Positions 250 through 63,336 of a DNA stretch of 64,000 nucleotides are shown here, in pieces. Each line of letters opens with the position of its first letter. The first letter of the stretch is position 1. A program made the position numbers and the translations under genes. The stretch spans positions 1,998 to 65,997 of the forward strand of contig LFCP01000004.1 in NCBI GenBank assembly GCA_001189155.1, given 5' to 3'. Source of the DNA: Parcubacteria bacterium C7867-006 (lineage in GTDB: Bacteria > Patescibacteriota > Minisyncoccia > Phycocordibacterales > DATDWN01). Below the pieces are notes generated by a model, which searched no databases, was not told the origin of the DNA, and worked only from the letters and a program-made list of their open reading frames with translations.

Positions 250-253
250 AAAT

Positions 254-3871: not shown

Positions 3872-3897
3872 ATGTGGCTAGGAAAGGGGAGTTAGCT

Positions 3898-4470
3898 ATG
3901 AATGACTTGCAGAGAAGGTGGCTTGAGAAGAATCGCATCGGCATCATCGACGAGGTCAATCGCGACATGTTCGTTTATGTTCGCGAGGCAATCGCCATCA
4001 AAATGGGTGAAGGTGGCCCACCAATCACAGTTCACATCTCAAGTGGTGGTGGCGCTGTTGTATGGGGTCTCGATATCTATGACCTCATCAACTTCTACCC
4101 GGGCAAGAAGGTCGGGGTCGTACATTCTATGGCGGCATCGATGGCATCCATCATCCTCCAGGCGTGTGACTGGCGAACGGCAACACCTTACGCTTCAGTT
4201 CTGATTCACCACGTGAACAACCAGAACCTCAAGCTGGATGTTGCCAGAGACAAGAATGAGCTCGAGAAGTTCATCGCCGGCATGGAGAAGAGCCAGAGCA
4301 AGTTGTATGAGATTCTTGTTCGGCGCACTGGAAAACCGATGGAGGAAATCAGTGCCCGTTGCAAGATGGAAGAATCCATGACTGCGCAGGAGGCGCTCAA
4401 CTATCACCTCATCGACCAGATTGTGGTTCAGGAGTCTGACGTGGTGATTCCAGAACCCGAAAAGAAATAA
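3898..4470 (+). CDS. ClpP-like serine protease (S14 family) encoded on a GC-rich islet
   Basis: Aligns by eye to ClpP: GGAVVWGLDIYD, catalytic Ser context VHSMAASMASI, His context SVLIHH, and the C-terminal EALNYHLIDQIV block. The ORF-track start at 3814 is an AT-rich in-frame extension. The true start is ATG 3898, preceded by an SD. GC-ending codons contrast with the flanks. Confidence 0.65.
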   Translation: MNDLQRRWLEKNRIGIIDEVNRDMFVYVREAIAIKMGEGGPPITVHISSGGGAVVWGLDIYDLINFYPGKKVGVVHSMAASMASIILQACDWRTATPYASVLIHHVNNQNLKLDVARDKNELEKFIAGMEKSQSKLYEILVRRTGKPMEEISARCKMEESMTAQEALNYHLIDQIVVQESDVVIPEPEKK

Positions 4471-4471
4471 C

Positions 4472-4528
4472 AGCTTCATGCAGGAGAGCCGATTGCGGCC
4501 CGCCTGCATGAAGCTTTTCTGTTTTTTA
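4472..4528 (+). terminator. rho-independent terminator (13-bp GC-rich stem + T-run)
   Basis: agcttcatgcagg ... cctgcatgaagct followed by tttctgtttttt. Confidence 0.6.
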
Positions 4529-4551
4529 ATAAAATCTGTTAGAATATTTCT

Positions 4552-5532
4552 ATGACTAAAAAAACATTACTTTCGGGAGTAAAACCTACAGGACGGCCAC
4601 ATATTGGAAACTATTTTGGTGCTATGCGCCAGTTCGTTGATATGCAGGATGAGTATAATGCTATATATATGATAGCTGACTATCACGCGCTTAACTTTAT
4701 TCAAAATAAAGAGGAGTTGAATCAAGCTATCATTGATTTAACTATAGACTATCTAGCTCTAGGTTTGGACCCTAAAAAATCTATTATTTTCAAACAATCA
4801 GATGTAATGGAGCATACAGAATTGGCTTGGATTTTTGACACTATTACAACAATGCCGTATCTAGAGAGAGCTCATGCATACAAGGATGCCGAGGTAAAGA
4901 ATAAGGAAATAAGTGTTGGAACTTTTAACTACCCGATGCTTATGGCTGCAGATATTTTGTTATATGACGTTGATGCAGTACCTGTTGGTCAGGATCAAAA
5001 ACAGCATGTTGAGTATGCTCGTGATACAGCACAAAAATTTAACTTCATTTTTGGAAAAGAAGTTTTTAAACTTCCTGAATCAAAGATATTAGGTGAAGTA
5101 GCAGTCGTTCCTGGAATTGATGGTCAGAAAATGAGTAAAAGTTATGGAAACACAATTCCGCTTTTTGCTACATTGGATGAAATCACAAAAGCAGTGATGT
5201 CTATTCCTACAGACTCAAAACCAATGAACGAACCTAGAAATCCGGAGGAAGACAATGTTTTTAAACTTCACAAACTATTTTCAAAATCAGAGGATTTATT
5301 TGTTTTGAGAGAAAGATATGAAAAAGGTGAAATAGGTCACAAAGAATCAAAAGAGATTTTGATAAAAAATATTGATGCTTTTATTGCACCACTTCGTGAA
5401 AAGAGAGATCAAATAGCTCACGATATAGATTATGTTCTAGATGTTTTGAAAGATGGTGGAAAGAGAGCAAAAGCAAAAGCAGAAAAGAAAATGGAAGCTG
5501 TGCGAGAGGTGATAGGAGTTAAACTATACTAA
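4552..5532 (+). CDS. trpS: tryptophanyl-tRNA synthetase
   Basis: Class I HIGH-type motif PTGRPHIGNYFGA and the KMSKS motif (QKMSKSYGN). Length 326 aa. Confidence 0.9.
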   Translation: MTKKTLLSGVKPTGRPHIGNYFGAMRQFVDMQDEYNAIYMIADYHALNFIQNKEELNQAIIDLTIDYLALGLDPKKSIIFKQSDVMEHTELAWIFDTITTMPYLERAHAYKDAEVKNKEISVGTFNYPMLMAADILLYDVDAVPVGQDQKQHVEYARDTAQKFNFIFGKEVFKLPESKILGEVAVVPGIDGQKMSKSYGNTIPLFATLDEITKAVMSIPTDSKPMNEPRNPEEDNVFKLHKLFSKSEDLFVLRERYEKGEIGHKESKEILIKNIDAFIAPLREKRDQIAHDIDYVLDVLKDGGKRAKAKAEKKMEAVREVIGVKLY

Positions 5533-5561
5533 GAGACTCTATTTTGATAGTATAAAATTCT

Positions 5562-6956
5562 ATGAAAAGAACTTATATAAAGGATTTGAGTAAGGAAGTT
5601 GGTCAGGAAGTTACTATTTCTGGCTGGGTGGATGTTCGTCGAGACCAAGGGAAAATGGTCTTTATGGATATGCGAGATATGACTGGAAAGGTGCAAGGTG
5701 TTGTTCTCCCAAACCATCCAGAGGCTATAGAGCAGGTAAAAGAGGTGAGAAACGAATGGGTTCTCTCTGTAACTGGCCTTATAAATAAACGACCAGAAAG
5801 AAATGTTAAAGCTGGTGTTCTAAATGGTGATATAGAAATGGAAATCACTGGTATAGAAGTTTTGAATAAATCAGAGACTATTCCTTTTGATATTTCTGGG
5901 GACACAAAAGAAATAAATGAGGAAGTTCGTTTGAAGTATAGATATGTTGATTTGCGTTCAGATAGAATGCAGAAAAATATCAGGAATCGGCACAAAGTAA
6001 TAAAGTTTATTCGAGATTATTTGGATAATGAAAACTTTATTGAAGTTGAGACTCCTATACTTACAAAATCAACTCCAGAAGGTTCACGAGATTATGTTGT
6101 GCCTGCGAGACTTTATCCAGGAAAGTTTTATGCACTTCCACAATCACCACAACAGTACAAACAACTACTTATGACAGCTGGTGTAGAGAAATATTTCCAG
6201 ATTGCACGATGTATGCGAGATGAGGATACTCGCGGAGACAGACAACCAGAGTTCACACAGTTAGATATGGAAATGAGTTTTGTTAAACAAGAAGATGTAA
6301 TGGAACTAAATGAGAAACTTTTGATCGAACTTGTTACAAAACTATATCCAGAAAAGAAAATTCAACAGATTCCTTTCCCACGACTTACATATGCAGAAGC
6401 AATGGAGAAGTATGGAAACGATAAACCTGATCTAAGAGAAGATAAAAATGATCCAGACTTACTGGCTTTCTGTTGGGTTATTGATTTTCCTTTCTTTGAG
6501 AAAACAGACACAGGAGCATGGACATTTACACACAACCCATTTTCACGACCAAAGCCAGAACATGTTGAGTGGCTAATGAAAAAAGAAAATATTGGTGAAA
6601 TACTGACAACTCAGTATGACGTTGCTCTAAACGGTATGGAAATTGGTGGAGGAAGTATAAGAAACCATGATCCAGAGGCTTTGCGAAAAGTTTTTGAAAT
6701 AATGGGTCACGAGTCAGATGCTATAGACAGAAACTTCGGTCATATGATGACAGCTTTTTCTCTTGGAACTCCACCACACGGAGGTATCGCTTGGGGACTA
6801 GATAGGTTCGTGATGACACTTCAGAATGAACCGAACATTCGTGAAGTTATTCCTTTTGCAAAAACAGGAGAAGGTAAAGACCCTATGATGGACTCTCCAG
6901 CAGAAATTTCTGTTGACCAACTATTGGAACTCGGAATTACTCTAAGAAAGAAATAA
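5562..6956 (+). CDS. aspS: aspartyl-tRNA synthetase, short (archaeal/non-discriminating-type, no GAD insertion). AsnRS not fully excluded
   Basis: Class IIb motifs: LPQSPQQYKQLLM, ARCMRDED, GGGSIR. At 464 aa it lacks the bacterial insertion domain. Confidence 0.75.
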   Translation: MKRTYIKDLSKEVGQEVTISGWVDVRRDQGKMVFMDMRDMTGKVQGVVLPNHPEAIEQVKEVRNEWVLSVTGLINKRPERNVKAGVLNGDIEMEITGIEVLNKSETIPFDISGDTKEINEEVRLKYRYVDLRSDRMQKNIRNRHKVIKFIRDYLDNENFIEVETPILTKSTPEGSRDYVVPARLYPGKFYALPQSPQQYKQLLMTAGVEKYFQIARCMRDEDTRGDRQPEFTQLDMEMSFVKQEDVMELNEKLLIELVTKLYPEKKIQQIPFPRLTYAEAMEKYGNDKPDLREDKNDPDLLAFCWVIDFPFFEKTDTGAWTFTHNPFSRPKPEHVEWLMKKENIGEILTTQYDVALNGMEIGGGSIRNHDPEALRKVFEIMGHESDAIDRNFGHMMTAFSLGTPPHGGIAWGLDRFVMTLQNEPNIREVIPFAKTGEGKDPMMDSPAEISVDQLLELGITLRKK

Positions 6957-6958
6957 TA

Positions 6959-12964: not shown

Positions 12965-12967
12965 TTA

Positions 12968-13012
12968 AACAAAAACCCACAAATCAGGGTTTCTGTTTTG
13001 TGGGATTTTACA
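12968..13012. terminator. bidirectional intrinsic terminator between mraY and a minus-strand islet gene
   Basis: aaaacccacaaa ... tttgtgggatttt hairpin with A/T runs on both sides. Confidence 0.5.
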
Positions 13013-13018
13013 CCTCCT

Positions 13019-13249
13019 TTAGTTAGAGTTGCTCATGAATTCAAACAGTATCAACCTCAGAATAGAAAGGAAGAAGAAGCCACTTGATAGCATGCCGATC
13101 GCATACATCAAGCTTCCTCTCAGGCCCCTGGGCTGGTAGCCTGAAATCATGAACGTTATTGATGTGAACTGATGGTTCACACCGAGGTAGAAGATTACTC
13201 CCGCGAGCATGGCCAGACCAGACAACACTGTGGTTCCTAAGGTCTCCAT
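13019..13249 (-). CDS. small (76 aa) two-helix membrane protein on a GC-rich islet inserted between mraY and ftsW
   Basis: Strong RBS aaggag 6 nt before the ATG (minus strand), two hydrophobic helices, GC-richer than the flanks. Confidence 0.45.
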   Translation of the reverse strand: METLGTTVLSGLAMLAGVIFYLGVNHQFTSITFMISGYQPRGLRGSLMYAIGMLSSGFFFLSILRLILFEFMSNSN

Positions 13250-13344
13250 TGGGATCTCCTTCTGTTTTTACTCTAGCAAAATAAAAAGTGTCGTCAAATT
13301 ATTTATTCTTAAAAAATAAATGATATACTGTCTTGTAGTATTTT

Positions 13345-18582: not shown

Positions 18583-18585
18583 CGA

Positions 18586-18626
18586 CGAAACCCGCTTCTG
18601 ACACTGTGTCAAAAGCGGGTTCAGAG
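18586..18626. terminator. bidirectional intrinsic terminator
   Basis: aacccgctt ... aagcgggtt 9-bp stem sitting between convergent genes. Confidence 0.5.
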
Positions 18627-18932
18627 TCTTGGGCGAATTTCCTTGAACGCCAATATAACTGCTCTGTAGAACAAATCGTTAGCCAGCCAGAACGACGGCT
18701 CACTGTAGAGGATGATGTTAATCAGCTCTTCACCTAGTTTCTCTGGTTTGTAGAAGCTGATGATTTCATCCTTCTTTTTCTCGATCACCTCCGGTTTTCT
18801 GATAACGAGTCTTCTGTTGATCAGGAACTCCATGACCTTGATACGCTTGTCGGCCAAGGTCAGCTTGTCTGGGAACTCGTGCTTTTTCTGTCCGAACCAA
18901 CTTTCCTTTCCGCGGATCACTCGTCCAGCCAC
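18621..18932 (-). CDS. hypothetical protein (103 aa) on a GC-rich islet
   Basis: GTG start preceded by aaaggag. GC-ending codons. No motif recognised. Confidence 0.45.
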   Translation of the reverse strand: MAGRVIRGKESWFGQKKHEFPDKLTLADKRIKVMEFLINRRLVIRKPEVIEKKKDEIISFYKPEKLGEELINIILYSEPSFWLANDLFYRAVILAFKEIRPRL

Positions 18933-19010
18933 GTAGTCTCCTTTCTTTCTACAAAAATTAAAGCATTAATAAGGGTTTTCCTCAAGTATTAGGTATGTTA
19001 AAATTAACGT

Positions 19011-21128: not shown

Positions 21129-21587
21129 TTATTGATTTATGGCTAAGTCTTTGTTTTCGTACTTACCCCAACAAGGCTTTGATGAAGCCCAAGGTCGTGT
21201 ACCTTCTCGCTCATACAAATCTCGAGCGTAGGCCACGTTACCTTCTAGTGTGTAGATGTTTATGTTCTTCTTTTGAGCTTGATCTAAGTGATAAAACTCA
21301 TTGATTTGCATAACACCAACATCAGCATTGTTAACAACTCCTCGGTGGATTTCTCCATCCGCATCTAGTTGTCTAAAATGTGACTCACATCTAGCAACCT
21401 GAATCATAATCGGAATGTCTGAGAAATATTGACGAACGTACTTTTCAGTAGACATCATATTATCAACATCTTCGTTAGATAACTTTCTTACGACTGATGA
21501 TTCTGTGACTGAATTTTCAAGCTTTGGAGTATCTTTGATCGCAATTGGACTGTTAACTCCACCTATGGCTGAAATAACCATGAACAA
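21129..21587 (-). CDS. small lytic transglycosylase / lysozyme-like (SLT domain) protein
   Basis: ARCESHF ... GVMQIN matches the SLT catalytic E-S ... GLMQ(I/V) pattern. Probable start is ATG at 21579-21581 (MVISAIGG...). GC is moderately elevated. Confidence 0.6.
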   Translation of the reverse strand: MFMVISAIGGVNSPIAIKDTPKLENSVTESSVVRKLSNEDVDNMMSTEKYVRQYFSDIPIMIQVARCESHFRQLDADGEIHRGVVNNADVGVMQINEFYHLDQAQKKNINIYTLEGNVAYARDLYEREGTRPWASSKPCWGKYENKDLAINQ

Positions 21588-23512: not shown

Positions 23513-23599
23513 TAGTTTTTATTATAAGGTTTTGATGTTTTAAGTATACTTGACGACTTACAGTATAAATCGTAGTCTGATACCAGACTGGGAGGTCAC

Positions 23600-23803
23600 A
23601 TGAAGGTTAAGGTTGGTAATAACCACATGAGGGATGTCAGCTTTGCTGACGATCGATACGTGGACATCATCTCCATGGATGGAAGTATTTCCATCCGAGT
23701 GATCATCGAGAAAGACCAGGTCGTCATTACAGCAAGATCCGGTAGCATGGTTATTGAACATGACCGTGCCTACCCATCAGTTCGTGTCGAGAAGAAGGTG
23801 TGA
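23600..23803 (+). CDS. small hypothetical protein (67 aa) on a GC-rich islet between dnaK and dnaJ
   Basis: RBS gggagg precedes the ATG, and a strong terminator follows. The opposite-strand ORF 23558..23761 has no RBS. Confidence 0.35.
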   Translation: MKVKVGNNHMRDVSFADDRYVDIISMDGSISIRVIIEKDQVVITARSGSMVIEHDRAYPSVRVEKKV

Positions 23804-23810
23804 GACTTTT

Positions 23811-23850
23811 CCACGGCCGGCCAGATTTGGTCGGCCGTTCGTCGTTTCTA
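23811..23850 (+). terminator. intrinsic terminator (GC stem acggccg/cggccgt + U-run) for the islet gene
   Basis: ccacggccggccagatttggtcggccgttcgtcgtttcta. Confidence 0.5.
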
Positions 23851-26688: not shown

Positions 26689-26757
26689 AGTTCGGCTATT
26701 TTAACACAATTTTTGAGCGATTCAAAATTATTGACAAAATATTAATTATATTTTACT

Positions 26758-26973
26758 GTGTCTACAGGGAGGAAGACTTTGAACATCATCATCACGAACA
26801 GAAGCAGCGACTACCACGCTGCAATTGAAGGAAGGCCTGAGATCTGGGGAAACGGCACAACTCCCCGAGAAGCCATCGGCAACCTCGTTCAATCGCACAA
26901 GGAGGTGTTCGGGATCACTGAGATCCAAAGCACAATACCAGCAATTGAGATCTACTCAACGCTAGTCGGCTAG
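26758..26973 (+). CDS. small HicB-like / UPF0150-like protein on a GC-rich islet (start probably TTG 26779)
   Basis: DYHAAIEGRPE-IWGNGTTPREAIGNLVQSH resembles the HicB antitoxin core (Y.A.I....G.G.T..EA..N). RBS gggagg lies 5 nt before TTG. No hicA partner was seen. Confidence 0.35.
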   Translation: MSTGRKTLNIIITNRSSDYHAAIEGRPEIWGNGTTPREAIGNLVQSHKEVFGITEIQSTIPAIEIYSTLVG

Positions 26974-27220
26974 TCATACCGTCATCGTGGCGGCGAATTA
27001 ATTGCCAGCACGATCGGCGGTTTTTTCGTATAAATATTATCACTTTCCCCAATGAGGCGTGCAAAGCTTTTCAGACTTTGCTTCTTGGAAATACCACAGG
27101 AGTACTTCAAATTTCTAATCGCTTTGCTCAAGAAATTTTGGTCGCCCACGGTTTTCCAACGCTCACTATCGCTCACTGCCTTCCGACACAGGAGAGACCT
27201 TTCTCTCCCGACCCCACTCT

Positions 27221-47783: not shown

Positions 47784-47877
47784 AATAAAACACTATACAG
47801 CAAAACACAGTTTTTTTGAAATTCTGAACAAAATATAAAAAGTTGATGATAAAATTATATACAGAAGGAGGACCGCT

Positions 47878-48492
47878 ATGCGAGATTTCTTGTTTTTCCT
47901 GCTCGCTACTTTCCTCCTGTTACCAAATGTAGCAGAAGGAAAAAGCAGCCTAGTTGGAAGCACTGTCTCTCAACACAAACAAAACGACCACGCCGAAGAA
48001 GAAGGTCTTCCTCAAATCAGAAATGATGAGGAACTAAACACTCTAAAAGAATCCGGAGCGCTCGTCCCAATTCCGGGAACCGTAAGAGTGGACTACCGAC
48101 TAGAAGACAAATGGCGTTGGTGTCTTCCCCAGACATCGTTCTTTCTTGGAGATATTGGACTCGAGTTCCAAGAAGTTTTTGGAAAACGACTCCAAATCAA
48201 CTCGGCAGTCAGGACAACACTGAGACAAATTGAGCTCCAAAAAACGAACAACAACGCTGTACCTGTCACTGGTCGTCGTCGGTCTTCCCACCTCACTGGG
48301 GCAACAGTGGACATTGCCAAAATCGGTCTCACAAAAGATGAACTTGAGTGGGTTCGATTAAAACTCCTCTCTCTAGAAGACGAGGAAAAACTGGAGGCAA
48401 CAGAAGAACACGATCAACTCGTTTTCCATGTAATGATTTTCCAGAGCTACACAAACGAAGCCAAGGCTTCGGAACTGCGAGCGCAGCAATAG
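47878..48492 (+). CDS. secreted LAS-superfamily zinc peptidase (peptidase M15 / DUF882-like) on a GC-rich islet
   Basis: Signal peptide MRDFLFFLLATFLLLPNVAEG. SAVRT ... RSSHLTGATVDI matches the SxHxxGxAxDI metal-binding motif of M15/VanY-like peptidases, with a second His later (FHVM). Confidence 0.5.
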   Translation: MRDFLFFLLATFLLLPNVAEGKSSLVGSTVSQHKQNDHAEEEGLPQIRNDEELNTLKESGALVPIPGTVRVDYRLEDKWRWCLPQTSFFLGDIGLEFQEVFGKRLQINSAVRTTLRQIELQKTNNNAVPVTGRRRSSHLTGATVDIAKIGLTKDELEWVRLKLLSLEDEEKLEATEEHDQLVFHVMIFQSYTNEAKASELRAQQ

Positions 48493-48508
48493 GCGCTCGC
48501 AGTTTTTC
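48476..48508 (+). terminator. intrinsic terminator, perfect 10-bp GC stem + T-run
   Basis: ctgcgagcgc agcaatag gcgctcgcag ttttt. Confidence 0.6.
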
Positions 48509-48516
48509 TTTAATAA

Positions 48517-48552
48517 GAAAACTCCCGAAACCTTGCTAGGGTCTCGGGAGTG
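48517..48552 (-). terminator. intrinsic terminator for the convergent minus-strand gene
   Basis: actcccgaaacc ... ggtctcgggagt stem. The minus-strand reading is followed by a U-rich run. Confidence 0.5.
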
Positions 48553-48570
48553 ACTGAGAATACTGGAGAA

Positions 48571-49410
48571 CTAGGTCTTCAGCACGCCGAAGAACTGACG
48601 TGCAGCAGCCTGAACCGCAGTGAGCTCAGCTTCAGCCTTATCAGCCCGACTCTTCTCTTGAGCCAAGGCTTCGTTCGCCAACTTCAGATCAGCGGTGACT
48701 TTCGCAACCTCCTCGCGGTAAAGCTCAAGCTCCGCGAGCTGATCCTGGGTAGAAGCAATCTGCCCCTCGAGTTCAGAGACTCTCATGGACAGATCGGTGC
48801 TCTGTTTCTGCAGTGGAGCGATCGAGCGACGGAGTTCGTCACACTCCTGCTCCTTCCTGATAAACAGTTGATACTGTTTGAGAACATTGTCGATGACCTC
48901 ACCCAGGTTGGGAATCCCACTTCGGAACTTCTCCAACTGACGGGCAGAATCGCTCCAGCCCTTATAGGGAGAAGACGAGCCGTTCCCGTCAGCCTTGTTC
49001 AGATCCTGAACAAGAACCGACGGAACAGGACCCTGATCCTCCACCGATGGATGTTCCTTCGGCTTCTCCTTTTCATTCGGGTAAGCCGAACTAAGAAGAT
49101 CCCGAATCTCAGCGGGGGTCAGAGTCTTGGGATGAAGAATCGCTCCATCGGGCCGGTCGTTCTTGATCTTCATCGTCAGCTCGTGATCGACGAAGCGGGT
49201 CTGAAGAATGAGTCCCGTGTTGCTCGGAACTGTGCACTTCTTACTGTCATCAGTGAACCAGAACAGCAAACGTCGGTCGCCCTTGTTGTACCAACCACCC
49301 ATGTTGCTCGGCCTGACGCCAGCAACAAGAATGGTGCCGTTGTTGGCGAGAACTGTCTTGGCCTGTTCGATGAGAGTGCTGGTGATCATGATCCGCTCCT
49401 TTTCCGACAC
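48571..49410 (-). CDS. hypothetical protein: N-terminal globular domain + C-terminal coiled-coil (GC-rich islet)
   Basis: RBS aaaggag 7 nt before the ATG on the minus strand. The C-terminal 110 aa is heptad-rich (LQKQSTDLSMRVSELEGQIASTQDQLAELE...). The antisense 297-aa plus-strand ORF is rejected. Confidence 0.5.
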   Translation of the reverse strand: MSEKERIMITSTLIEQAKTVLANNGTILVAGVRPSNMGGWYNKGDRRLLFWFTDDSKKCTVPSNTGLILQTRFVDHELTMKIKNDRPDGAILHPKTLTPAEIRDLLSSAYPNEKEKPKEHPSVEDQGPVPSVLVQDLNKADGNGSSSPYKGWSDSARQLEKFRSGIPNLGEVIDNVLKQYQLFIRKEQECDELRRSIAPLQKQSTDLSMRVSELEGQIASTQDQLAELELYREEVAKVTADLKLANEALAQEKSRADKAEAELTAVQAAARQFFGVLKT

Positions 49411-49509
49411 GTCCGTTTACCACGGACTGGGTTGAGGATTTAAAAAGAACACCTCGAAGGAGGATTATGACATGATTGTTATAATTTGTAAATATAACTA
49501 CTATTTTGT

Positions 49510-51204: not shown

Positions 51205-51212
51205 AATAAACC

Positions 51213-51239
51213 AGGTCGCACTCCGTAGAATGCGACCTG
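51213..51239. terminator. bidirectional hairpin terminator
   Basis: caggtcgca ctccgtagaa tgcgacctg, lying between convergent genes. Confidence 0.5.
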
Positions 51240-51263
51240 AGGGTAAATCTTGTGCCGTGGGTG

Positions 51264-51527
51264 CTAGTCGTGACCCTCCGGACTCATGTTGAGGTTGTCC
51301 CAGCGACAGGCCTTGAGCCCCTCGCAAGAATTGAAGAACGTGCACTTGCGCGCCTCGGAGCCGAGCTGGCAACCGCGCGTCTGGCGATCTCCCGTCGTGA
51401 TGTGACTGAAGAGGATCTCATCAGACTGAATCCTGTTCAGACGCCCTGGCAGGGTAACTCCCTGCAGGGCCCGAAATTCCTCCACAACTTCGATGTGACG
51501 TGTGACTTCGCGGGACAAACCTTCCAT
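51264..51527 (-). CDS. small 4-Cys hypothetical protein (87 aa), GC-rich islet
   Basis: RBS gaggagg 8 nt before the ATG. C-terminal Cys cluster C-x9-C-x6-C-x5-C. The antisense plus ORF is rejected. Confidence 0.45.
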   Translation of the reverse strand: MEGLSREVTRHIEVVEEFRALQGVTLPGRLNRIQSDEILFSHITTGDRQTRGCQLGSEARKCTFFNSCEGLKACRWDNLNMSPEGHD

Positions 51528-51685
51528 TATGCGCCTCCTCTAATATAGTACGACTAACACATTTAGCTGTCAAATAATATTTTTAATATACCAACCAAAA
51601 CAAGGATATATTTATTTATAATTTGACAAAATATTGTTATATATGTAGGATTTTTCTCTGAAAGGCCTTAGGAGGGCCTGAGTTC

Positions 51686-51883
51686 ATGGGGAAAGAGACC
51701 AGAGGATTCGCATCGATGTCACCGGAGAAGCAGCGTGAGATCGCAAGCAAGGGCGGCCGGGCCGCACACGAGAAGGGCAAGGCCCACGAGTGGACCAGCG
51801 ATGAAGCTCGTGAGGCTGGACGCAAGGGCGGCATGGCCAGTCGTGGCGGGCGCGGCAAGACTACCGCTCAGCCGACGACCTAG
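51686..51883 (+). CDS. KGG-repeat general stress protein (YciG/Con-10-like)
   Basis: Repeated KGG/RGG motifs (ASKGGRAAHEKGKAHEWTSDEAREAGRKGGMASRGGRGK). RBS aggaggg. GC-rich. Confidence 0.55.
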   Translation: MGKETRGFASMSPEKQREIASKGGRAAHEKGKAHEWTSDEAREAGRKGGMASRGGRGKTTAQPTT

Positions 51884-51904
51884 TCGACAGTAGCAACGCA
51901 ACGC

Positions 51905-51939
51905 AAACGGGGTGAGCCAGATGGCCCACCCCGTTTTTC
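51905..51939. terminator. bidirectional intrinsic terminator
   Basis: cggggtg agccagatggccc caccccg ttttt. Confidence 0.6.
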
Positions 51940-51962
51940 CTATATTGAGAATTTGAAACTTA

Positions 51963-52649: not shown

Positions 52650-52871
52650 TATTTATTTTAATTAAAGCAAACAAATTTAATATTCCAACATTCTATCACA
52701 GAGGGTTTCTATAGGCCAACTAGGTTATACAGACTAATTAGGTTAAAACTAATAATCTACGACTATTATACACCCACTGTATTTTTTTATTTCAAATACA
52801 GTTTCACTTTGTAGATATTGACTTTTTTCTATAAATAGGTTAGAAATTACCATTGAAAGGGTTCTTTACAC

Positions 52872-53051
52872 ATGGCAAAATTGAGCAAAGACAATGCTGT
52901 GACGCATGCGCTGCGTCACGGTACGAGCAAGAACTGTGCACACCTCGCCTCCCCATCGAAAGTGAAGGAGGCTAAAGCACCGATTCACGTAGTAGACCGT
53001 TCTCTCCTTTGTGGGGAATGCGTCCCAACAGAGGAGCTCTCCGCAGTCTAG
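52872..53051 (+). CDS. possible tiny protein (59 aa) on a GC-rich islet. Not in ORF track
   Basis: ATG 52872 to TAG 53049-53051 gives MAKLSKDNAVTHALRHGTSKNCAHLASPSKVKEAKAPIHVVDRSLLCGECVPTEELSAV. Followed by a plus-oriented terminator. Weak RBS. Confidence 0.3.
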   Translation: MAKLSKDNAVTHALRHGTSKNCAHLASPSKVKEAKAPIHVVDRSLLCGECVPTEELSAV

Positions 53052-53078
53052 CTCTGGCTAGCTCATGTCATCACACCG

Positions 53079-53115
53079 TGCGCTCGGGCCTTTGGCCCGG
53101 GTGCGCGTTTTTTTA
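53079..53115 (+). terminator. intrinsic terminator (imperfect GC stem + T7 run)
   Basis: gcgctcgggcc tttg gcccgggtgcgcg ttttttt. Confidence 0.45.
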
Positions 53116-53121
53116 TTATTT

Positions 53122-54031: not shown

Positions 54032-54068
54032 TTATTTTGATTCTAGCATTTTTAAAATATACGACAAA

Positions 54069-54100
54069 GCCCGCGATGGACTAGTCGTCCCATGCGGGCA
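54069..54100. terminator. hairpin terminator downstream of minus-strand islet gene
   Basis: gcccgcgatggactagtcgtcccatgcgggc, immediately after the stop at 54101-54103. Confidence 0.4.
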
Positions 54101-54442
54101 TTACTTTCTGACAAGTCCGAGGTTTGCTCGGACTTTATCGTTCAAATTCTTGATATCTTCAGCCTTCACATCTCCTTTCGGAAGTTCGTTCATCTTGCTC
54201 AGGCACTGAGCCTGAAAAGAAACGTCGTGATCTGCTCTGATAACGAGCAGAGCGGCATCGCTCGAGGCTTGAGCCCCGACCTTCGAGATGGAGGGCCAAC
54301 CAATAGCCCTCACGATGCGTTTCATCACCTGACCGTGTGCCGTTGGCTGAGGTGGATCCGCTCGAGCCATCTCCAAAATCATCTTTGGAATTTCTTCCAC
54401 GACAACTGGTGGATTGTAGAAATGCGAGTTCTTCCAACTCAT
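54101..54442 (-). CDS. hypothetical protein (113 aa) on a GC-rich islet
   Basis: RBS ggaggggg precedes the ATG. GC-ending codons. Overlapping plus-strand ORFs are rejected. Confidence 0.45.
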   Translation of the reverse strand: MSWKNSHFYNPPVVVEEIPKMILEMARADPPQPTAHGQVMKRIVRAIGWPSISKVGAQASSDAALLVIRADHDVSFQAQCLSKMNELPKGDVKAEDIKNLNDKVRANLGLVRK

Positions 54443-54489
54443 AACCCCCTCCAGTTTTATTTATACATCACTTTCAAACAGTGTCAATA

Positions 54490-58273: not shown

Positions 58274-58675
58274 TTACACCTCACCCAACAAATACGCAAT
58301 GTTTGTGTAAACAACCTTTTTTGCCTCCTCTAGAGGGAACCATTTTGATTTCGTGCCTTCTTCGGCTGTAGCTTTTTGGCCAAGTGACTTTGCTTTGAAC
58401 ATTGCGACGACTATCTCCTCGTCTGTGCCACCTCTCAAATATTTTAAATCCGACAGTCTAGAGATGATTTCAACTTCATAACCAGTTTCCTCCAAAACCT
58501 CTCTCACGGCTACATCCTCAAGATTTTCTCCTGCCTCAGCATGACCTTTTGGATATGACCAGATATCCTCGTCCACTCTACTCACCAGCAAAACTTCGTT
58601 GTTGTCGTTTACAACAACACAACCCGCTTTCATAGTCTCCCCGCTTTCATTTTTTATTTTTTTCTCGTGTGACAT
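58274..58675 (-). CDS. NUDIX hydrolase (third copy, small, GC-richer)
   Basis: Nudix box GHAEAGENLEDVAVREVLEETG. The ORF-track N-terminal extension to 58942 overlaps the next membrane gene and is rejected. Confidence 0.65.
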   Translation of the reverse strand: MSHEKKIKNESGETMKAGCVVVNDNNEVLLVSRVDEDIWSYPKGHAEAGENLEDVAVREVLEETGYEVEIISRLSDLKYLRGGTDEEIVVAMFKAKSLGQKATAEEGTKSKWFPLEEAKKVVYTNIAYLLGEV

Positions 58676-58683
58676 TTTGTGAT

Positions 58684-59082
58684 TTAAATATTGTTGAAAC
58701 TTCTCAAAAAGAACTTTCCACCAAACCAAACAAATAGAGGACCAGATACGGCAAGCGCAACAGGATACCAATGGTTGCCCAAACTCCATCCGGAAACTGC
58801 TCCAGCGACTCCACCTATACCACCAAGAATCATAAGGACATACACGTGCTTTATAGGATTTGCAGGAGCCAAACGTGCTGTGACATATCCACCTACTACC
58901 GTGTAAATACTGCGATAGAAAAGAGCCAGGGCCAGCATCCATGTGACATATGATCCAGAGTCAGCAGAAGAAGGAAATACTCCAAACTTTTCGAGCACAA
59001 CGTCAGTGGCTATAGATAAAAATGCAACTGAAACAAACCCCACTATCACTGACCCGATACTTTTAAATATATTTTTATTCAT
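58684..59082 (-). CDS. small polytopic membrane protein
   Basis: Four hydrophobic helices. GC-richer than the backbone. Confidence 0.4.
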   Translation of the reverse strand: MNKNIFKSIGSVIVGFVSVAFLSIATDVVLEKFGVFPSSADSGSYVTWMLALALFYRSIYTVVGGYVTARLAPANPIKHVYVLMILGGIGGVAGAVSGWSLGNHWYPVALAVSGPLFVWFGGKFFLRSFNNI

Positions 59083-59113
59083 ATTTTTTATTTTATTATT
59101 GTTTAACGTAAGT

Positions 59114-59515
59114 TTATTTGCTAGAGATTGCGCTGGTAATAAAGTAAGTCACCGTAGATACAGAAGCTGCGAGCACGGCGCCCCAGATCATGTCCACGAT
59201 AGTTATGAGTAGTGGCCAGTCTTTTGCCACAGCGAGGTTGGTGAGGTCGTATGTTGCATAGCAGACAAGACCGAACAGTGCGCCGAACATAACTGCGTAC
59301 ATCCATGAACCTTTTTCTACTGCTGGAGTGATAACGAAAACAACTAGTCCAACGATGAACAAAAGGTAGAAAGTTATTGCTGCGACCCAGTTAACATCTG
59401 TTTTGAGAAGTGAGCCTATCTGAGCACGATAAAAGTTTTTTGAAACAACACCTAGCCAGAACATGTCGATAGCAAAGAAAACTGGAAGAGCTATAACGTA
59501 AAGTTTTATGAACAT
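59114..59515 (-). CDS. small polytopic membrane protein (DUF2177-like)
   Basis: Four hydrophobic helices. GC-richer than the backbone. Confidence 0.4.
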   Translation of the reverse strand: MFIKLYVIALPVFFAIDMFWLGVVSKNFYRAQIGSLLKTDVNWVAAITFYLLFIVGLVVFVITPAVEKGSWMYAVMFGALFGLVCYATYDLTNLAVAKDWPLLITIVDMIWGAVLAASVSTVTYFITSAISSK

Positions 59516-59557
59516 AATGTGTAAAGTTATTTTTAACTACAAGATTATAACATTTTA

Positions 59558-60527: not shown

Positions 60528-60556
60528 AGCGCACAATCCCGTATGGGATTGTGCGC
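60528..60556 (-). terminator. intrinsic terminator (perfect 13-bp stem) downstream of parB-like gene
   Basis: agcgcacaatccc gtat gggattgtgcgct. The minus-strand reading is followed by a U-rich run. Confidence 0.55.
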
Positions 60557-60572
60557 TTCGGACTCACCGAAA

Positions 60573-61925
60573 CTAGTCCTTACTCCTGACCGTGGTCCTC
60601 AAGTCAACCTGATCGCGGAGCATGGTCAATTTTTCAGCGAGATCATCGATCTCCTTGAGAACGTTCTGTCTGTCCTCAAGTGGACGATTTTGAAAGAGCT
60701 CATCGATTGCACGATGGGGCATGTCAACGAGATGCTCCAAGTTCTCGTTCGCCTTCCGCAGATAGTTGCGCAGGATTACGTAATCCTCTCTTGGACTACG
60801 TCCGGGTGACCCAACCCTGATGCCGGCGGCCGAAGCCAACTGGCGAGCCAGATGTTTGGCCTTCGCAACACTAAGACCCTTCTCGACAGCCTCCTTGCAG
60901 ACTTTGAGTTGAATCTCCCGGCTCTCGATTGACGCCAGGAAAACACCCATGGACTGTGGAAGTGCCGAACGCTCATTGTCGTCCGGCTCCAACATATCCT
61001 GAACTTCCTTTGGCAGGTTGAGAAGCTTCAGGTAGTTGAATGCCCAGACGTCGGTCTTGCCGGTCAACGAGGCGATGATCCTGAGAGCAGCCATCTTGCT
61101 GAGGTCTGCATATTCAGGAAAATCCATCATGCGCCGAATTGAGCGAGCGGTCTCGAGAGGAGTGTGTCCTTCGCGAGCAAAGTTCGCCACGAAAGACTTC
61201 TTGAACTGGTCTTCGGAGTCTTTGACCTCCCTGACCGTAGCGAGCATCTCCTCGACACCGAGCTTGGTGCAAGCACGAAGCCGTCGCTCACCCTCAATCA
61301 GCTCATAGTCAAAGTTGGGGTCATCATCGATCGGACGAACGATGATCGCCGTAACCTGACCAATGGCCTTGATGCTGGTCATGAGTTCCTGCATCTTCTT
61401 GGGACTGAAGTACGTGCGAGGTTGACCCTTGAGGGGTCTCACCCGTTTCGTCTTCACCAGGAACTCACCCTCCCACTTTCTTGGTGCTGGAGGTACAGTC
61501 ACAGGACCGGGGCTGCGCATGAGGTGAGCCGGAATCTGCCGTCTGGTGGTAACACCAGGCACAGCGTAATCAGCTCCGTTACCATTGCCGTTCCCGTTTC
61601 CACCAACTTCATCGCTGAAATAGGTGTTGAGGTTCTTTTCCAGATGGTTCGAGGAGTACTCGGTGTGAATCTGGTCGTCCTTGATGCCGTTCTTTCTTGC
61701 CCACGTTTTGATGATGTTCTCGGCATCTTTCTTCATTGCGTATGGAAGAACGATTCCAACCACACCGTCAGGCACAGTACCGGCGCCAAGGAACTCCCAT
61801 GAGTTCATCCAGTGGACACGTGCTCCAAACCGGAGTTGTGCCTTTCTGGGTAGGCTCATGTTGACGACAATGATCTTTCCACCGGAAGGAAAGGGCAGAC
61901 CACTAGTTGTGTTGCTCAAACTCAA
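60573..61925 (-). CDS. ParB/Srx-fold (ParB N-terminal domain) protein with N-terminal extension and GNGNGNGNG linker. Orphan (no parA)
   Basis: IKAIGQVTAIIVRPID ... YELIEGERRLRACTKLG and NFAREGHTPLETARS match ParB boxes. TTG start with RBS ggagg. GC-rich islet. Confidence 0.6.
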   Translation of the reverse strand: MSLSNTTSGLPFPSGGKIIVVNMSLPRKAQLRFGARVHWMNSWEFLGAGTVPDGVVGIVLPYAMKKDAENIIKTWARKNGIKDDQIHTEYSSNHLEKNLNTYFSDEVGGNGNGNGNGADYAVPGVTTRRQIPAHLMRSPGPVTVPPAPRKWEGEFLVKTKRVRPLKGQPRTYFSPKKMQELMTSIKAIGQVTAIIVRPIDDDPNFDYELIEGERRLRACTKLGVEEMLATVREVKDSEDQFKKSFVANFAREGHTPLETARSIRRMMDFPEYADLSKMAALRIIASLTGKTDVWAFNYLKLLNLPKEVQDMLEPDDNERSALPQSMGVFLASIESREIQLKVCKEAVEKGLSVAKAKHLARQLASAAGIRVGSPGRSPREDYVILRNYLRKANENLEHLVDMPHRAIDELFQNRPLEDRQNVLKEIDDLAEKLTMLRDQVDLRTTVRSKD

Positions 61926-62061
61926 CCTCCGAGGAAATAGTTACGAATTTGTTGGTGCTATTCCGTTTTTCAGTCTAGTAAATATATAAATTATTGTCTA
62001 TGATTCCAAACTATTAGATTTGTTGTGTATTTTTATTTTTTTTGGTAATCTAATTGTTACT

Positions 62062-62164: not shown

Positions 62165-62237
62165 GGGCCCGTAGCTCATCTGGTAGAGCACATCATTTGC
62201 AATGATGGGGTGGCAGGTTCGAGTCCTGTCGGGTCCA
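62165..62237 (+). tRNA. tRNA-Ala (anticodon UGC)
   Basis: Manual cloverleaf: acceptor GGGCCCG/CGGGTCC with G3:U70, D-arm GCTC-ATCTGGTA-GAGC, anticodon arm CATCA-TTTGCAA-TGATG, T-arm GCAGG-TTCGAGT-CCTGT, discriminator A. CCA is not encoded. Confidence 0.9.
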
Positions 62238-62239
62238 CA

Positions 62240-62270: not shown

Positions 62271-62271
62271 G

Positions 62272-62360: not shown

Positions 62361-62513
62361 ACTTTTATTGAGTGGCGATGAATTAAAAGTTAGGAAGAGT
62401 CCTGTGTTTCAGAACAAGTGTACTAACCCTATAAGGGTCAAATCCGATATTTAACATTTGACAATCCTCCCAAAATACCGCAATCTTTTGCTCAGAGCGA
62501 GGGAGGCTCTTTA

Positions 62514-62873
62514 ATGCAAAACACTGTCGCAAAAGAAGCGACATTGCAGACTAAAGCCGTAAAATCGTGGCTGAAATCTGCAGGTTACAGAGAAGTAACC
62601 AGGATGGACCTCAAAGCTAATGGGGTTCTCATCATGGTAGACACGACAAGAATCAAACCGGTTGAAGATGGTGAGATCAAAGCAGGTTACACTGCGGGCA
62701 CCACACTAGTTCAACTCGGCAACCCACCGATAACCGAAAGCGAAATGTTCGGCGGGCTTGAAGTTCTACACTTCCAGATGACCTACCCTGCAATGGGCAG
62801 ACATTCGTTTGTGCCGGTAGACGATGTGCTTACCGGCAAAGAGTCAACGCTCTGGTTTGTTGAAAAGGAGTAG
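62514..62873 (+). CDS. hypothetical protein (119 aa), paralog A of a tandem pair on a GC-rich islet
   Basis: RBS gagggagg precedes the ATG. Shares blocks with the next ORF: GVLIMVDTTRI~CIVMVDVQRL, EVLHFQMTYPAMGRHSFVPVDDVL~KVVHFRHIERASHRPDFVPLEEIL, LWFVEK~RYFVRR. Confidence 0.45.
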   Translation: MQNTVAKEATLQTKAVKSWLKSAGYREVTRMDLKANGVLIMVDTTRIKPVEDGEIKAGYTAGTTLVQLGNPPITESEMFGGLEVLHFQMTYPAMGRHSFVPVDDVLTGKESTLWFVEKE

Positions 62874-62877
62874 ATAG

Positions 62878-63258
62878 GTGGACAATCCACGTTACTTTGA
62901 AGAGGAGATCTTCAAAGCCAAAGCTGTCATGGCGCAACTCGGCTTCGATCCAGTCAAACTGGAGGACATCGTCGCGGACAACTGTATCGTGATGGTGGAT
63001 GTCCAGCGACTCTGCGCCCACAACGCACCTCCAAGCAAACTCGGTGAGGCAGGAACGTCGGTCATCTGCATCGACAACGAGCCAATCCGTGAGCACGAAA
63101 GGATTGCTGGACGAAAGGTGGTCCACTTCCGCCACATCGAGAGAGCTTCCCACAGACCAGACTTTGTCCCTTTGGAGGAAATACTCCGAGACGAGTACGA
63201 CCCGCGAGTCGCCAACTCGTCCGACACGCGCTACTTCGTGAGGCGCAAACGCGATTAG
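62878..63258 (+). CDS. hypothetical protein (126 aa), paralog B of tandem pair
   Basis: GTG start with RBS aaaggag, 4 nt after paralog A's stop. Homology blocks as above. Confidence 0.45.
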   Translation: MDNPRYFEEEIFKAKAVMAQLGFDPVKLEDIVADNCIVMVDVQRLCAHNAPPSKLGEAGTSVICIDNEPIREHERIAGRKVVHFRHIERASHRPDFVPLEEILRDEYDPRVANSSDTRYFVRRKRD

Positions 63259-63282
63259 CGCTACGACTAGACGTCGCACGAG

Positions 63283-63313
63283 AGCCCCGGCCGATACCGG
63301 GGTTCTTTTTTTA
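63283..63313 (+). terminator. intrinsic terminator (ccccgg/ccgggg stem + T7)
   Basis: gagccccggccgataccggggttcttttttt. Confidence 0.6.
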
Positions 63314-63336
63314 TATAAAAAAGATATAATTAAAAT

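Follow-up and report, generated by a model that had tools for sequence, protein, structure and literature searches.

The 64,000-nucleotide stretch of DNA analyzed here (contig LFCP01000004.1 of Parcubacteria bacterium C7867-006; hereafter 'the window') is occupied by two classes of genes, which differ in their composition, in their signals for transcription and translation, and in their orientation. Dispersed among ordinary chromosomal genes, at 11 loci, are compact cassettes comprising 13 transcription units and 14 genes, in which a short open reading frame (ORF) rich in guanine and cytosine (GC) is packaged with its own expression signals. The best reading of these observations is that the genome is divided into two compartments, an architecture typical of Parcubacteria; in the explanation favored here, to which a probability of about 0.5 is assigned, the cassettes would constitute a rapidly evolving compartment of accessory genes that extends across the phylum and possesses expression signals of its own, turned over by exchange among Parcubacteria rather than by acquisition from a high-GC host. 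An earlier note on the same DNA had described GC-rich islets bearing Shine-Dalgarno (SD) sequences within a backbone that is rich in adenine and thymine (AT) and devoid of SDs, and had likened them to phage morons. The former description is borne out by segments of 45-56 % GC and by the SD counts given below, and the latter by the directly observed anatomy of the cassettes, which are autonomous units of promoter, SD leader, ORF and terminator with a foreign-looking composition.

Two classes of genes in the window

Parcubacteria bacterium C7867-006 is represented by a metagenome-assembled genome of 652 kb and 36 % GC from the Hanford aquifer, and compositional islets are not mentioned in the paper that describes it (PMC4508563). 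The overall GC content of the window is 36.7 %, interrupted by the sharp GC-rich segments. The gene set consisted of the 79 genes called by the Joint Genome Institute (JGI), with one wrong-strand call and two start codons corrected. Within that set, islet genes display a GC content of 52.1 %, as compared to 35.3 % for backbone genes, and a third-position GC content (GC3) of 0.61 as compared to 0.25, with ranges of 0.43-0.73 and 0.14-0.40, respectively. All three codon positions are shifted together, from 0.47/0.34/0.25 in the backbone to 0.57/0.39/0.61 in the islets, and the islet proteins contain 1.8-fold more arginine and less lysine, isoleucine, phenylalanine and tyrosine; these codon-position and amino acid shifts match the expectation for a regime of approximately 52 % GC. 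The islet proteins are also shorter, with a median length of 108 amino acids (aa) versus 228 aa.

The same partition is found in the signals that surround each gene. A strong SD, defined by a pairing energy with the anti-SD sequence of -7 kcal/mol or lower, precedes 12 of the 15 high-GC3 genes versus 2 of the 64 others (Fisher p = 7.4e-10), and the former count becomes 13 of 15 when the start of a ParB-like gene is moved to a TTG codon at 61919. Backbone genes appear mostly to be of the leaderless type: a -10 box of the form TAnnnT, starting at -14 to -10 and ending about 7 nucleotides (nt) before the ATG, is found in 28/64 backbone genes versus 1/15 islet genes (shuffles of the upstream regions predict 23 %), a spacing that is characteristic of leaderless mRNAs. 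Among 27 such backbone promoters that were scored, none displays a good -35 element and nine carry a TG extension. A TTGAC -35 box at the right distance is present in 9 of 13 islet units versus 3 of 60 backbone genes (p = 1.4e-6). Strong terminator hairpins (at least 11 base pairs, of which at least 7 are GC pairs) number six in the islet-rich 20 kb, every one of them at the 3' end of an islet, and zero in an islet-free control of 20 kb. The coding RNA of the islets is also more highly structured than dinucleotide-preserving shuffles of itself, with a median z of -2.9 versus -0.8 for the backbone (p = 3e-4); a separate folding check gave z values of -3.9 and -4.1 for two islet genes versus +0.2 and -0.4 for two backbone genes of equal length.

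Finally, 59 of 61 backbone genes are co-oriented with the inferred direction of replication, versus 5 of 14 islet genes (p = 8e-7). The cumulative GC skew reaches its maximum near 21 kb (20700-21200), at a flip of the gene strand; genes on the plus strand end at 20767 and those on the minus strand begin at 21129, forming a convergent switch that resembles a replication terminus, and a short hairpin terminator is found near that switch, at 21066-21098.

The backbone genes located downstream of cassettes (trpS, ftsW, dnaJ, grpE, DUF948 and others) each possess a start-proximal -10 box of their own, and the cassette terminators are frequently bidirectional. Because of these promoters, and because the cassette terminators would insulate neighboring genes, cassettes are probably tolerated inside gene clusters; the insertion of a terminated unit would cost little, so that 'operons' such as mraY/ftsW and dnaK/dnaJ look split.

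The junctions themselves are real. Contigs J055_10000035 (window 1-34728) and J055_10000484 (34731-64000) of JGI metagenome 3300001199 show 100 % identity to the window; the Logan assembly of run SRR2043728, made independently, matches 204-7161 and 46455-54099, islets included, also at 100 %; and the same cassette architecture is found again in dozens of other metagenomes. An assembly chimera, which the earlier note had listed among the outcomes that would overturn its description, is rejected by these identical junctions from two assemblers and by the recurrence in independent metagenomes. An Rfam scan likewise led to rejection of ribosomal RNA, tRNA or known non-coding RNA as the source of the GC peaks: its sole match in the window was a tRNA-Ala, and no known RNA family was found in the islets at gathering thresholds or at E<=0.1.

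The individual cassettes and their products

Cassette 1 (3844..4528, plus strand) extends from a TTGACT-N16-TATACT promoter (3844-3871) through a GGGGAG SD and an ORF at 3898-4470 (GC 0.51, GC3 0.64) to a terminator hairpin at 4460-4527, and is located between a methyltransferase gene and trpS. The earlier note had assigned it a backbone-type promoter, which does not agree with its possession of a -35 element, a feature that backbone promoters lack. Its product is a ClpP-like or prohead-protease-like serine protease that scores under all curated cutoffs and is about equally near to phage prohead proteases and to ClpP. Cassette 2 (12966..13297, minus strand), which combines a TTGACG promoter and an AAGGAG SD with an ORF for a small membrane protein of 76 aa (13019-13249, GC3 0.64), is situated between mraY and ftsW, opposite to both, and shares its terminator with mraY. 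Cassette 3 (18583..18990, minus strand) encodes, behind an AAAGGAG SD and from a GTG start codon, a protein of 103 aa (hyp103; 18621-18932, GC3 0.64), and ends in a bidirectional terminator at 18589-18620; an exhaustive search of 1.84 billion representatives returned four relatives of hyp103, making it a near-orphan.

Cassette 4 (23550..23848, plus strand), with a TTGACG-N17-TAGTCT promoter, a GGGAGG SD, a 67-aa ORF at 23600-23803 and a terminator at 23812-23845, is found between dnaK and dnaJ and is again opposite to both. Cassette 5 (26731..27035, plus strand), located between grpE and rpsI, comprises a TTGACA-N17-TACTGT promoter, an AGGGAGG SD, a 64-aa ORF with a TTG start codon (26779-26973, GC3 0.65) and a terminator. 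The splitting of mraY|ftsW, dnaK|dnaJ and rpsI|grpE, with the first two inserts opposite in orientation, had thus been correctly recognized beforehand. The islet at 26740-27240 had been drawn as a single segment, of which 26740-27035 is confirmed and 26982-27245 is uncertain: the stretch at 26982-27295, between cassette 5 and rpsI, has a GC content of approximately 0.45 and contains a doubtful 64-aa ORF, its portion at 27036-27245 directly beside cassette 5 belongs to no assigned unit, and a 29-nt inverted repeat (27221-27249 / 27267-27295) encloses the rpsI terminator and reaches into the 3' coding end of rpsI.

Cassettes 6 and 7 are convergent, and together confirm, as two units, an islet that had been placed at 47860-49470. 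Cassette 6 (47845..48512, plus strand) has a TG-extended -10 promoter, an AGGAGG SD, an ORF for a secreted DUF5715 protein (47878-48492) and a terminator at 48471-48506; a structural model of the family (predicted local distance difference test score, pLDDT, of 92) matches VanY/LdcB L,D-carboxypeptidases, such that the secreted protein is predicted to adopt a VanY/LdcB-like L,D-carboxypeptidase fold. Cassette 7 (48521..49492, minus strand) has a TTTACA-N17-CATAAT promoter (49492-49464), an AAAGGAG SD, an ORF at 48571-49389 that encodes a protein of 272 aa with a coiled-coil C-terminus (GC3 0.64), and a terminator at 48551-48521. The JGI call at this site (48550-49443, 297 aa, plus strand) is the antisense of that SD-led, minus-strand gene, and the Logan call agrees with the latter. 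Wrong-strand ORFs were also picked by a greedy ORF picker in GC-rich cassettes of two related genomes (L017 and L024, below), and were corrected by reading of the junctions and by tblastn; GC-rich cassettes are mis-handled by gene callers trained on an AT-rich backbone.

Cassette 8 (51205..51573, minus strand) carries a TTGACA-N17-TACTAT promoter, a GAGGAGG SD, an ORF for a cysteine-rich protein of 87 aa (hyp87; 51264-51527, GC3 0.72) and a terminator at 51240-51211, while cassette 9 (51623..51945, plus strand) carries a TTGACA-N17-TAGGAT promoter, an AGGAGGG SD, a 65-aa ORF of the KGG stress-protein type (51686-51883, GC 0.65) and a terminator. Cassette 10 (52819..53117, plus strand) has a TTGACT promoter, a weaker SD (AAAGGG), a 59-aa ORF (52872-53051) and a terminator with a 14-bp stem (53077-53107). 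The promoter of cassette 11 (54060..54487, minus strand), of the TTGACA type, begins 3 nt past the stop codon of an HhH-GPD gene, and is followed by the SD GGAGGGGG, a 113-aa ORF (hyp113; 54101-54442) and a terminator at 54062-54100.

Cassettes 12 and 13 flank the tRNA-Ala(TGC) gene (62165..62238, plus strand). In cassette 12 (60528..62009, minus strand), a GGAGG SD and a TTG start at 61919 precede an ORF for a ParB-like, CTPase-type protein (60573-61919), and a terminator follows at 60557-60528. The protein passes the TIGR00180 domain cutoff, and members of its family share a conserved N-terminal alpha/beta domain (four beta-alpha units, residues 11-105, pLDDT 72-86, as described from the secondary structure of the predicted model alone) that a disordered linker, rich in Gly and Asn, connects to the ParB CTPase-type core and that is missing from the canonical Parcubacteria ParB (P0034). 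Cassette 13 (62458..63315, plus strand) is driven by a TTGACA promoter, carries the SD GAGGGAGG, and contains a paralogous pair of ORFs at 62514-62873 (119 aa) and 62878-63258 (126 aa, with its own AAAGGAG SD), terminated at 63280-63307. A 22-nt copy of the 5' end of tRNA-Ala (gggcccgtagctcatctggcag) at 62062-62083, approximately 80 nt upstream of the intact gene, is followed by a degenerate stretch resembling an anticodon arm and is missing in the related loci L007 and L008; it may be the relic of a tRNA duplication or integration event. The sequence directly 3' of the tRNA (62240-62420) is GC-rich and non-coding and forms three consecutive hairpins, for which Rfam gave only a spurious sub-threshold match and which are not conserved in L007 or L008. 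With regard to a tRNA-targeted island in the 60.5-63.3 kb region, the analysis showed a copy of the tRNA 5' (not 3') end, a large serine recombinase beside the ParB-like homolog in L007, no integrase in the window, and a pairing of tRNA and ParB-like gene that is conserved in three lineages.

Six cassette products contain a Pfam domain or display a confident fold. The small cassette proteins have no match in Pfam, PHROGs, NCBIfam or PADLOC, and their clusters at 90 % identity contain one to three members, from this organism only; no defense systems or toxin-antitoxin modules were matched by PADLOC beyond coiled-coil noise.

Of the 14 islets that had been listed previously, 12 are confirmed and two are rejected. 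The gene at 21129..21581 (minus strand; islet at about 21100-21600), which lies at the strand switch and GC-skew maximum, is a backbone gene with a GC3 of 0.32 and no SD, and its homologs in L039, L041 and L045 (62-74 % identical) are themselves of backbone composition. The segment at 58274..59515 (minus strand; listed as 58270-59520), which encodes a NUDIX protein, a 132-aa ORF and DUF2177, has a GC content of 0.42-0.43, lacks SDs, follows the backbone orientation, and does not belong to the cassette class. Three NUDIX-domain genes are found within 3 kb (55514-56543, 58274-58675), two of them adjacent and overlapping, and the third with mildly raised GC. Elsewhere in the window, four to five tandem 21-nt coding repeats of an acidic, heptad-like character are present in the DUF948 gene (53671-53775), and a 111-nt direct repeat, 95 % identical (57563-57673 / 57752-57862), is located inside a gene for a hypothetical protein of 449 aa.

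Recurrence, persistence and turnover among Parcubacteria

The same association between composition and initiation signals was directly observed across the phylum. In a pooled survey of 40 independent Parcubacteria loci (683 ORFs, identified with a deliberately crude ORF caller), strong SDs were found in front of 3 % of ORFs of backbone-like GC3 versus about 25 % of those with a GC3 at least 0.15 above the locus median (odds ratio 8.3, p = 6e-8), and SD-led ORFs were the richer in GC3 in 21 of 26 loci. For backbone bins of 0.29, 0.34, 0.43 and 0.57, the median GC3 of SD-led ORFs was 0.38, 0.53, 0.52 and 0.63, and thus varied far less than that of the backbone; SD-led, GC-rich genes were found among leaderless backbone genes in loci with backbones of 35, 40 and 50 % GC. 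The excess of RNA structure is weaker in other genomes than in the window (median z of -1.6 versus 0.0, p = 0.017).

Related loci are denoted by L-numbers. A scan of GTDB anchored on the HhH-GPD gene recovered eight species-level relatives of the window, of which L017 is the closest. Full-length members of the ParB-like family were found at 86, 60, 53, 47, 42 ... % identity, with gene contexts available in L008, L007, L011 and L014. The gene order in L008 (UvrC-Ddl-...-ParB-like-...-HhH-GPD-SurA_N-YceG-flavodoxin-YchF) is syntenic with that of the window, and in all contexts the ParB-like gene is GC-rich and SD-led within a leaderless backbone, the GC content of which is either 35 % or 48-50 %. 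The tRNA-Ala(TGC) gene is positioned divergently upstream of the ParB-like gene in the window, L007 and L008, and is 100 % identical in the latter two; in L007 the ParB-like gene is adjoined by that of hyp129, a distant homolog of the cassette 13 proteins. The DUF5715 family forms a graded series from 82 down to 41 % identity, including one named Parcubacteria genome, and its members are SD-led and elevated in GC in the syntenic locus L024, in L016/L017, and in L025, which is not syntenic. At junctions identical to those of the window, tblastn identified homologs in L017 of KGG (66 %), hyp113 (51 %) and DUF5715 (47 %), and in L024 a homolog of hyp87 that is weakly similar (23 %) and displays the same layout of promoter and SD.

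Persistence at the same sites is accompanied by rapid divergence. The cassettes appear to evolve several-fold faster than the backbone, because hyp113, DUF5715 and hyp87 are 51, 47 and 23 % identical to their counterparts whereas proteins of the flanking backbone are 75-92 % identical (92 % for the HhH-GPD protein beside hyp113, in L017). A DNA alignment of the window to L017 is 83-87 % identical up to the HhH-GPD stop codon and 50-63 % identical through the promoter, leader and coding sequence of hyp113. The hyp113 terminator hairpin (54062-54100) is approximately 95 % identical to that of L017, as compared to about 57 % for the cassette coding sequence and about 85 % for the backbone, and might reflect either unusually strong constraint or a recombination breakpoint. 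Synonymous divergence (dS) approaches saturation in the backbone (0.9-2.6) and exceeds what can be computed in the cassettes, and at that divergence the cassette homologs are still GC-rich and SD-led; judged from these sequences, they exhibit no signal of amelioration. For hyp113, KGG and DUF5715, the proteins are better conserved than the nucleotide sequences. In every homolog the SD is kept at -6 to -12, in a leader that is otherwise unalignable, which argues that the SD is functional, and that the cassettes would be translated by SD-dependent initiation beside the leaderless initiation of the backbone.

Turnover at these junctions involves whole cassettes, and such presence, absence or replacement at exactly these intergenic sites is what a comparison with related genomes, proposed in the earlier note, revealed. 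In L008, the Flavodoxin|YchF and SurA_N|YceG gaps measure 36 and 80 bp, where the window contains 1.6 and 0.75 kb of cassettes; cassette 9 (KGG) is absent from L008, and cassette 7 is absent from L008, L024, L016 and L017. The order rpsI-grpE-dnaK-dnaJ is conserved across 80 Parcubacteria loci anchored on GrpE, with gaps of between 5 bp and over 2 kb that often contain GC-rich windows, and no homologs of the inserts that the window carries in its rpsI|grpE and dnaK|dnaJ gaps were found in these 80 loci. L016 and L017, whose backbone blocks are 88-99 % identical, nevertheless differ by whole-cassette insertions or deletions (indels) and by non-homologous replacements. In one clean indel, a complete cassette (terminator, coding sequence, SD and TTGACA promoter) fits exactly into the space that separates the 3' end of a gene from the TGnTAnAAT promoter belonging to the following gene, with no target duplication at that site except a shared A-rich run. 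A 3.3-kb block containing the DUF5715 cassette (L016 17195-20545, L017 17202-20552) is 98.7 % identical, as compared to 88-95 % for other shared blocks, and suggests recent recombination between these two species-level genomes. An N-run in L016 (12500-12710) that is flanked by a duplicated 55-nt sequence is a scaffolding artefact.

The absence of integrase, transposase and attC-like sites, already remarked upon in the earlier note, was confirmed: no integrase, recombinase or transposase is present among the called genes of the window, and no attC-like sites, terminal repeats or target duplications were found at its cassettes. An all-against-all comparison of cassette ends and a search of the whole window for repeats identified no sequence common to the cassettes beyond the promoter consensus, and the hairpins at their 3' ends are mutually unrelated terminators followed by T-runs. 

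Origin of the cassettes and comparison with known systems

In the favored explanation, one compartment would consist of an AT-rich, replication-co-oriented housekeeping backbone without SDs and mostly without terminators, with expression driven by -10 promoters, TG-extended or not, that directly adjoin the start codon, or by coupling to an upstream gene. The other would consist of units wedged into intergenic gaps in either orientation, each with a -35/-10 sigma-70 promoter, a leader of 15-35 nt containing the consensus SD GGAGG, a coding sequence of about 52 % GC, an unusually structured mRNA and a strong terminator. These units would represent accessory genes specific to their lineages, gained, lost and replaced whole, whose products include a peptidoglycan peptidase, a protease resembling ClpP, a ParB-like protein, a stress protein of the KGG type, and small proteins that are membrane-bound or orphans. 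Since that turnover occurs at fixed junctions without an element-encoded enzyme, recombination in conserved flanks after DNA uptake is the best explanation for it. The donors would be other Parcubacteria, sharing a pool of genes that spans the phylum and retains a composition of its own, along with consensus signals that do not depend on the host; such signals would be expected of genes that need to work in many genomes. This proposal agrees with a report that most gene transfers into Patescibacteria come from other Patescibacteria (PMC12455944). All detectable relatives of the cassettes (ParB-like, DUF5715, KGG, hyp113 and hyp87) reside in Parcubacteria-type genomes, as does every homolog context recovered for the ParB-like and DUF5715 families, and no donor lineage outside the recipient clade was identified among the recovered contexts. 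Locus L014 (GCA_050258715.1, JBLMZH010000027.1) is labelled Acidobacteriaceae; it is gene-for-gene syntenic with L011, displays the same leaderless backbone and SD-led cassettes, and is probably a mis-binned contig.

Several observations weigh against this explanation. No vehicle, recombinase or donor replicon has been found, and the anti-SD motif, detected in only 48 % of Parcubacteria, is reported as missing from about half of them (PMC9297842). A pool shared across genomes of 32-59 % GC does not, by itself, explain why cassettes have a GC content of 50-58 %; the five syntenic families, whose GC3 is no lower than that of orphans (0.61 versus 0.62), fit a maintained property equally well; and the excess of mRNA structure, moderately supported outside the window, points to selection at the level of RNA. 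The DUF5715 tree is compatible with acceleration and with replacement alike and neither proves nor excludes transfer, and ORFs in the related loci were called by a crude procedure. For cassettes that stay at 50-58 % GC in genomes of 35-50 % GC, even at saturated divergence, three accounts each agree with part of the data: a shared pool, GC-biased conversion of recombining segments, and selection in favor of transcripts that are structured and resist nucleases. A broader proposition is advanced only tentatively: that the two compartments are maintained over evolutionary time, with cassettes held at approximately 50-58 % GC whatever the GC content of the backbone, so that their GC is actively produced or maintained rather than being a foreign relic, while they evolve several-fold faster and move without an element-encoded recombinase. 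Such maintained GC could be caused by gene conversion biased towards GC at hotspots of recombination, by selection favoring long-lived mRNAs that resist nucleases, or by a process bounded by the transcript.

Other explanations receive less weight. In the main rival, the cassettes would represent a resident, special-purpose class of vertically inherited Parcubacterial genes, whose leadered, SD-dependent and terminator-capped mRNAs were selected to be GC-rich and structured (for example, to be long-lived during stress, dormancy or attachment), such that composition reflects function rather than origin and variability reflects weak protein constraint and ordinary gene loss. Five families that remain at the same junction, GC-rich and SD-led, despite saturated dS agree with this view, as do the ParB-like/tRNA-Ala pair conserved in three lineages, the equal GC3 of persistent and orphan cassettes, the confinement of strong 3' hairpins to cassettes, the stress-type KGG product, and the folding of cassette coding sequences (z of about -3 to -4.6, versus approximately -0.8 for the backbone, with the same trend in other genomes), although that last measure may partly reflect local compositional patchiness. 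The explanation nonetheless seems unlikely, given a random orientation of cassettes where resident genes are 97 % co-oriented, clean whole-cassette indels between genomes with 88-99 % identical backbones, many cassettes for which the corresponding junction of as many as 80 relatives contains no homolog, and products that are functionally incoherent; there is also no known selective reason for a ParB-like protein or a peptidase to need a structured mRNA. Many independent and recent imports from a high-GC, SD-using organism outside the Candidate Phyla Radiation (CPR), such as the host of an epibiont, followed by slow amelioration, had been suggested in the earlier note, which had also named same-lineage homologs at the same position as evidence that would contradict it. 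Such homologs exist for at least five cassettes: ParB-like by tRNA-Ala (L007, L008), DUF5715 (L024, L016/L017), KGG (L017), hyp113 (L017) and, weakly, hyp87 (L024). In every homolog context the gene is again GC-rich and SD-led in a leaderless backbone of the Parcubacteria type, typically AT-rich, and the same rule applies to genomes with 50 % GC backbones; the absence of amelioration despite saturated dS, the very AT-rich promoter regions of the cassettes (unlike the DNA of a high-GC donor) and the lack of close matches in phage, plasmid and viral sets also render this origin distinctly improbable, even though composition, codon use and amino acid use match a source of about 52 % GC, consensus expression signals differ from those of the backbone, orientation is random, many cassettes are orphans (clusters of one to three members), junction occupancy is variable, and inter-phylum donors to Patescibacteria have been reported (PMC12455944).

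Also very improbable is descent from phages or plasmids, by which the cassettes would be domesticated or decaying single genes of GC-rich mobile elements of Parcubacteria (morons, partition genes, lysins or a prohead protease), integrated, for example, at tRNA-Ala. The products have a certain phage flavor, in that families of head-maturation proteases give the ClpP-like protein its highest scores, and that it is accompanied by a ParB-like protein, a VanY-like peptidase and a small membrane protein; moreover, the ParB-like gene abuts tRNA-Ala with the 22-nt tRNA fragment nearby, and has a large serine recombinase as its neighbor in L007. The window contains no structural phage genes, integrase or contiguous prophage in its 64 kb, however, and the cassettes are dispersed singly at more than ten sites, with a ParB-like/tRNA-Ala arrangement that is conserved rather than sporadic. 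Scans of viral contigs in IMG/VR and tblastn against phages returned only generic ParB and ClpP domain matches, and no close relatives were found in viral, phage or plasmid collections (generic matches at <=37 %, plasmid matches at <=32 %). An artefactual or non-coding nature, whether as chimeras of assembly or binning or as genes for GC-rich, structured non-coding RNAs, is scarcely credible and largely refuted. GC-rich islands in AT-rich genomes are classically non-coding RNAs, the cassette RNAs are highly structured, and several ORFs are orphans in DNA whose GC-richness yields chance ORFs on both strands; against this stand the identical junctions in two assemblies and the recurrence of the architecture in many independent metagenomes, the domains or confident folds of six products, the SDs and start codons correctly spaced directly behind promoters, the excess of protein over nucleotide conservation for hyp113, KGG and DUF5715, and the combination of an empty Rfam result for the islets with conserved reading frames, SDs and protein domains.

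Much of bacterial diversity belongs to the CPR/Patescibacteria, in which gene expression has hardly been studied by experiment. If the favored explanation is correct, two regimes of translation initiation would coexist in one cell, each with its own promoter type and mRNA design, and the frequent lack of an anti-SD that has been reported for Parcubacteria (PMC9297842) would become directly testable against gene content. The flexible genome would be legible from GC, SD, -35 element and terminator, yielding candidate host-interaction genes, and the wrong-strand calls seen twice in GC-rich cassettes would serve as a warning for gene callers. Genes that are persistently GC-rich at saturated divergence would challenge the standard picture of amelioration and would provide a natural system in which to separate biased conversion, RNA-level selection and gene-pool effects, while the compact promoter-SD-terminator units would offer ready-made parts for the emerging genetics of Patescibacteria.

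Several known systems resemble the cassettes in part. Phage morons are autonomous promoter-gene-terminator units of deviant composition found between conserved phage genes. Like morons, the cassettes consist of one or two genes equipped with a promoter and a terminator, leave their neighbors undisturbed, deviate in composition and vary in presence; however, the backbone here is a cellular chromosome (dnaK, ribosomal proteins, mraY/ftsW/murG) rather than a phage, in that the flanks are housekeeping genes, the window lacks phage structural genes and viral scans were negative. The cassettes also differ from their backbone in initiation mode and promoter type, and several persist at the same site across species. 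Integron cassettes are promoterless, attC-bearing genes in one oriented array next to intI/attI, and are moved by IntI; the units described here are similarly small, mobile, single-gene and unrelated in function, but they carry their own promoters and terminators, are dispersed at 11 loci in both orientations, and lack an integrase and attC sites.

Genomes that mix leaderless and SD-led genes are known, corresponding to 'group C' of GeneMarkS-2, Actinobacteria and Deinococcus (PMC6028130). The window resembles them in the -10 box that lies approximately 6-8 nt before the start of many first genes and in its minority of leadered genes with an SD, whereas the gap of about 17 points in GC content between the initiation classes, and their differences in promoter, terminator, orientation, evolutionary rate and accessory status, are unreported for those phyla in the searchable literature; an incomplete search of full texts, which provides absence of evidence only, found no description of such coupling, or of leaderless predominance, in the CPR. 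The islet genes display the deviant GC content, codon use and amino acid use, relative to the genome, that characterize atypical genes, and are GC-richer than their genome where atypical genes are usually GC-poorer (PMC6028130).

Of the known systems, the one that comes closest is the chromosomal hotspot of horizontal gene transfer (HGT), or flexible islet. Such hotspots, for which Oliveira et al. 2017 is said to provide an example, reportedly lie between core genes and exchange their content by recombination in the flanks. The cassettes resemble them in the variable accessory content found at the same core junctions, in the absence of an integrase, and in exchange that would occur mostly within the clade. 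They are distinguished from HGT hotspots by their miniature size (0.3-1.5 kb, one gene), by their uniform packaging with consensus signals, and by a GC content above that of the genome, which is tied to a switch in promoter, initiation mode, terminator and mRNA structure.

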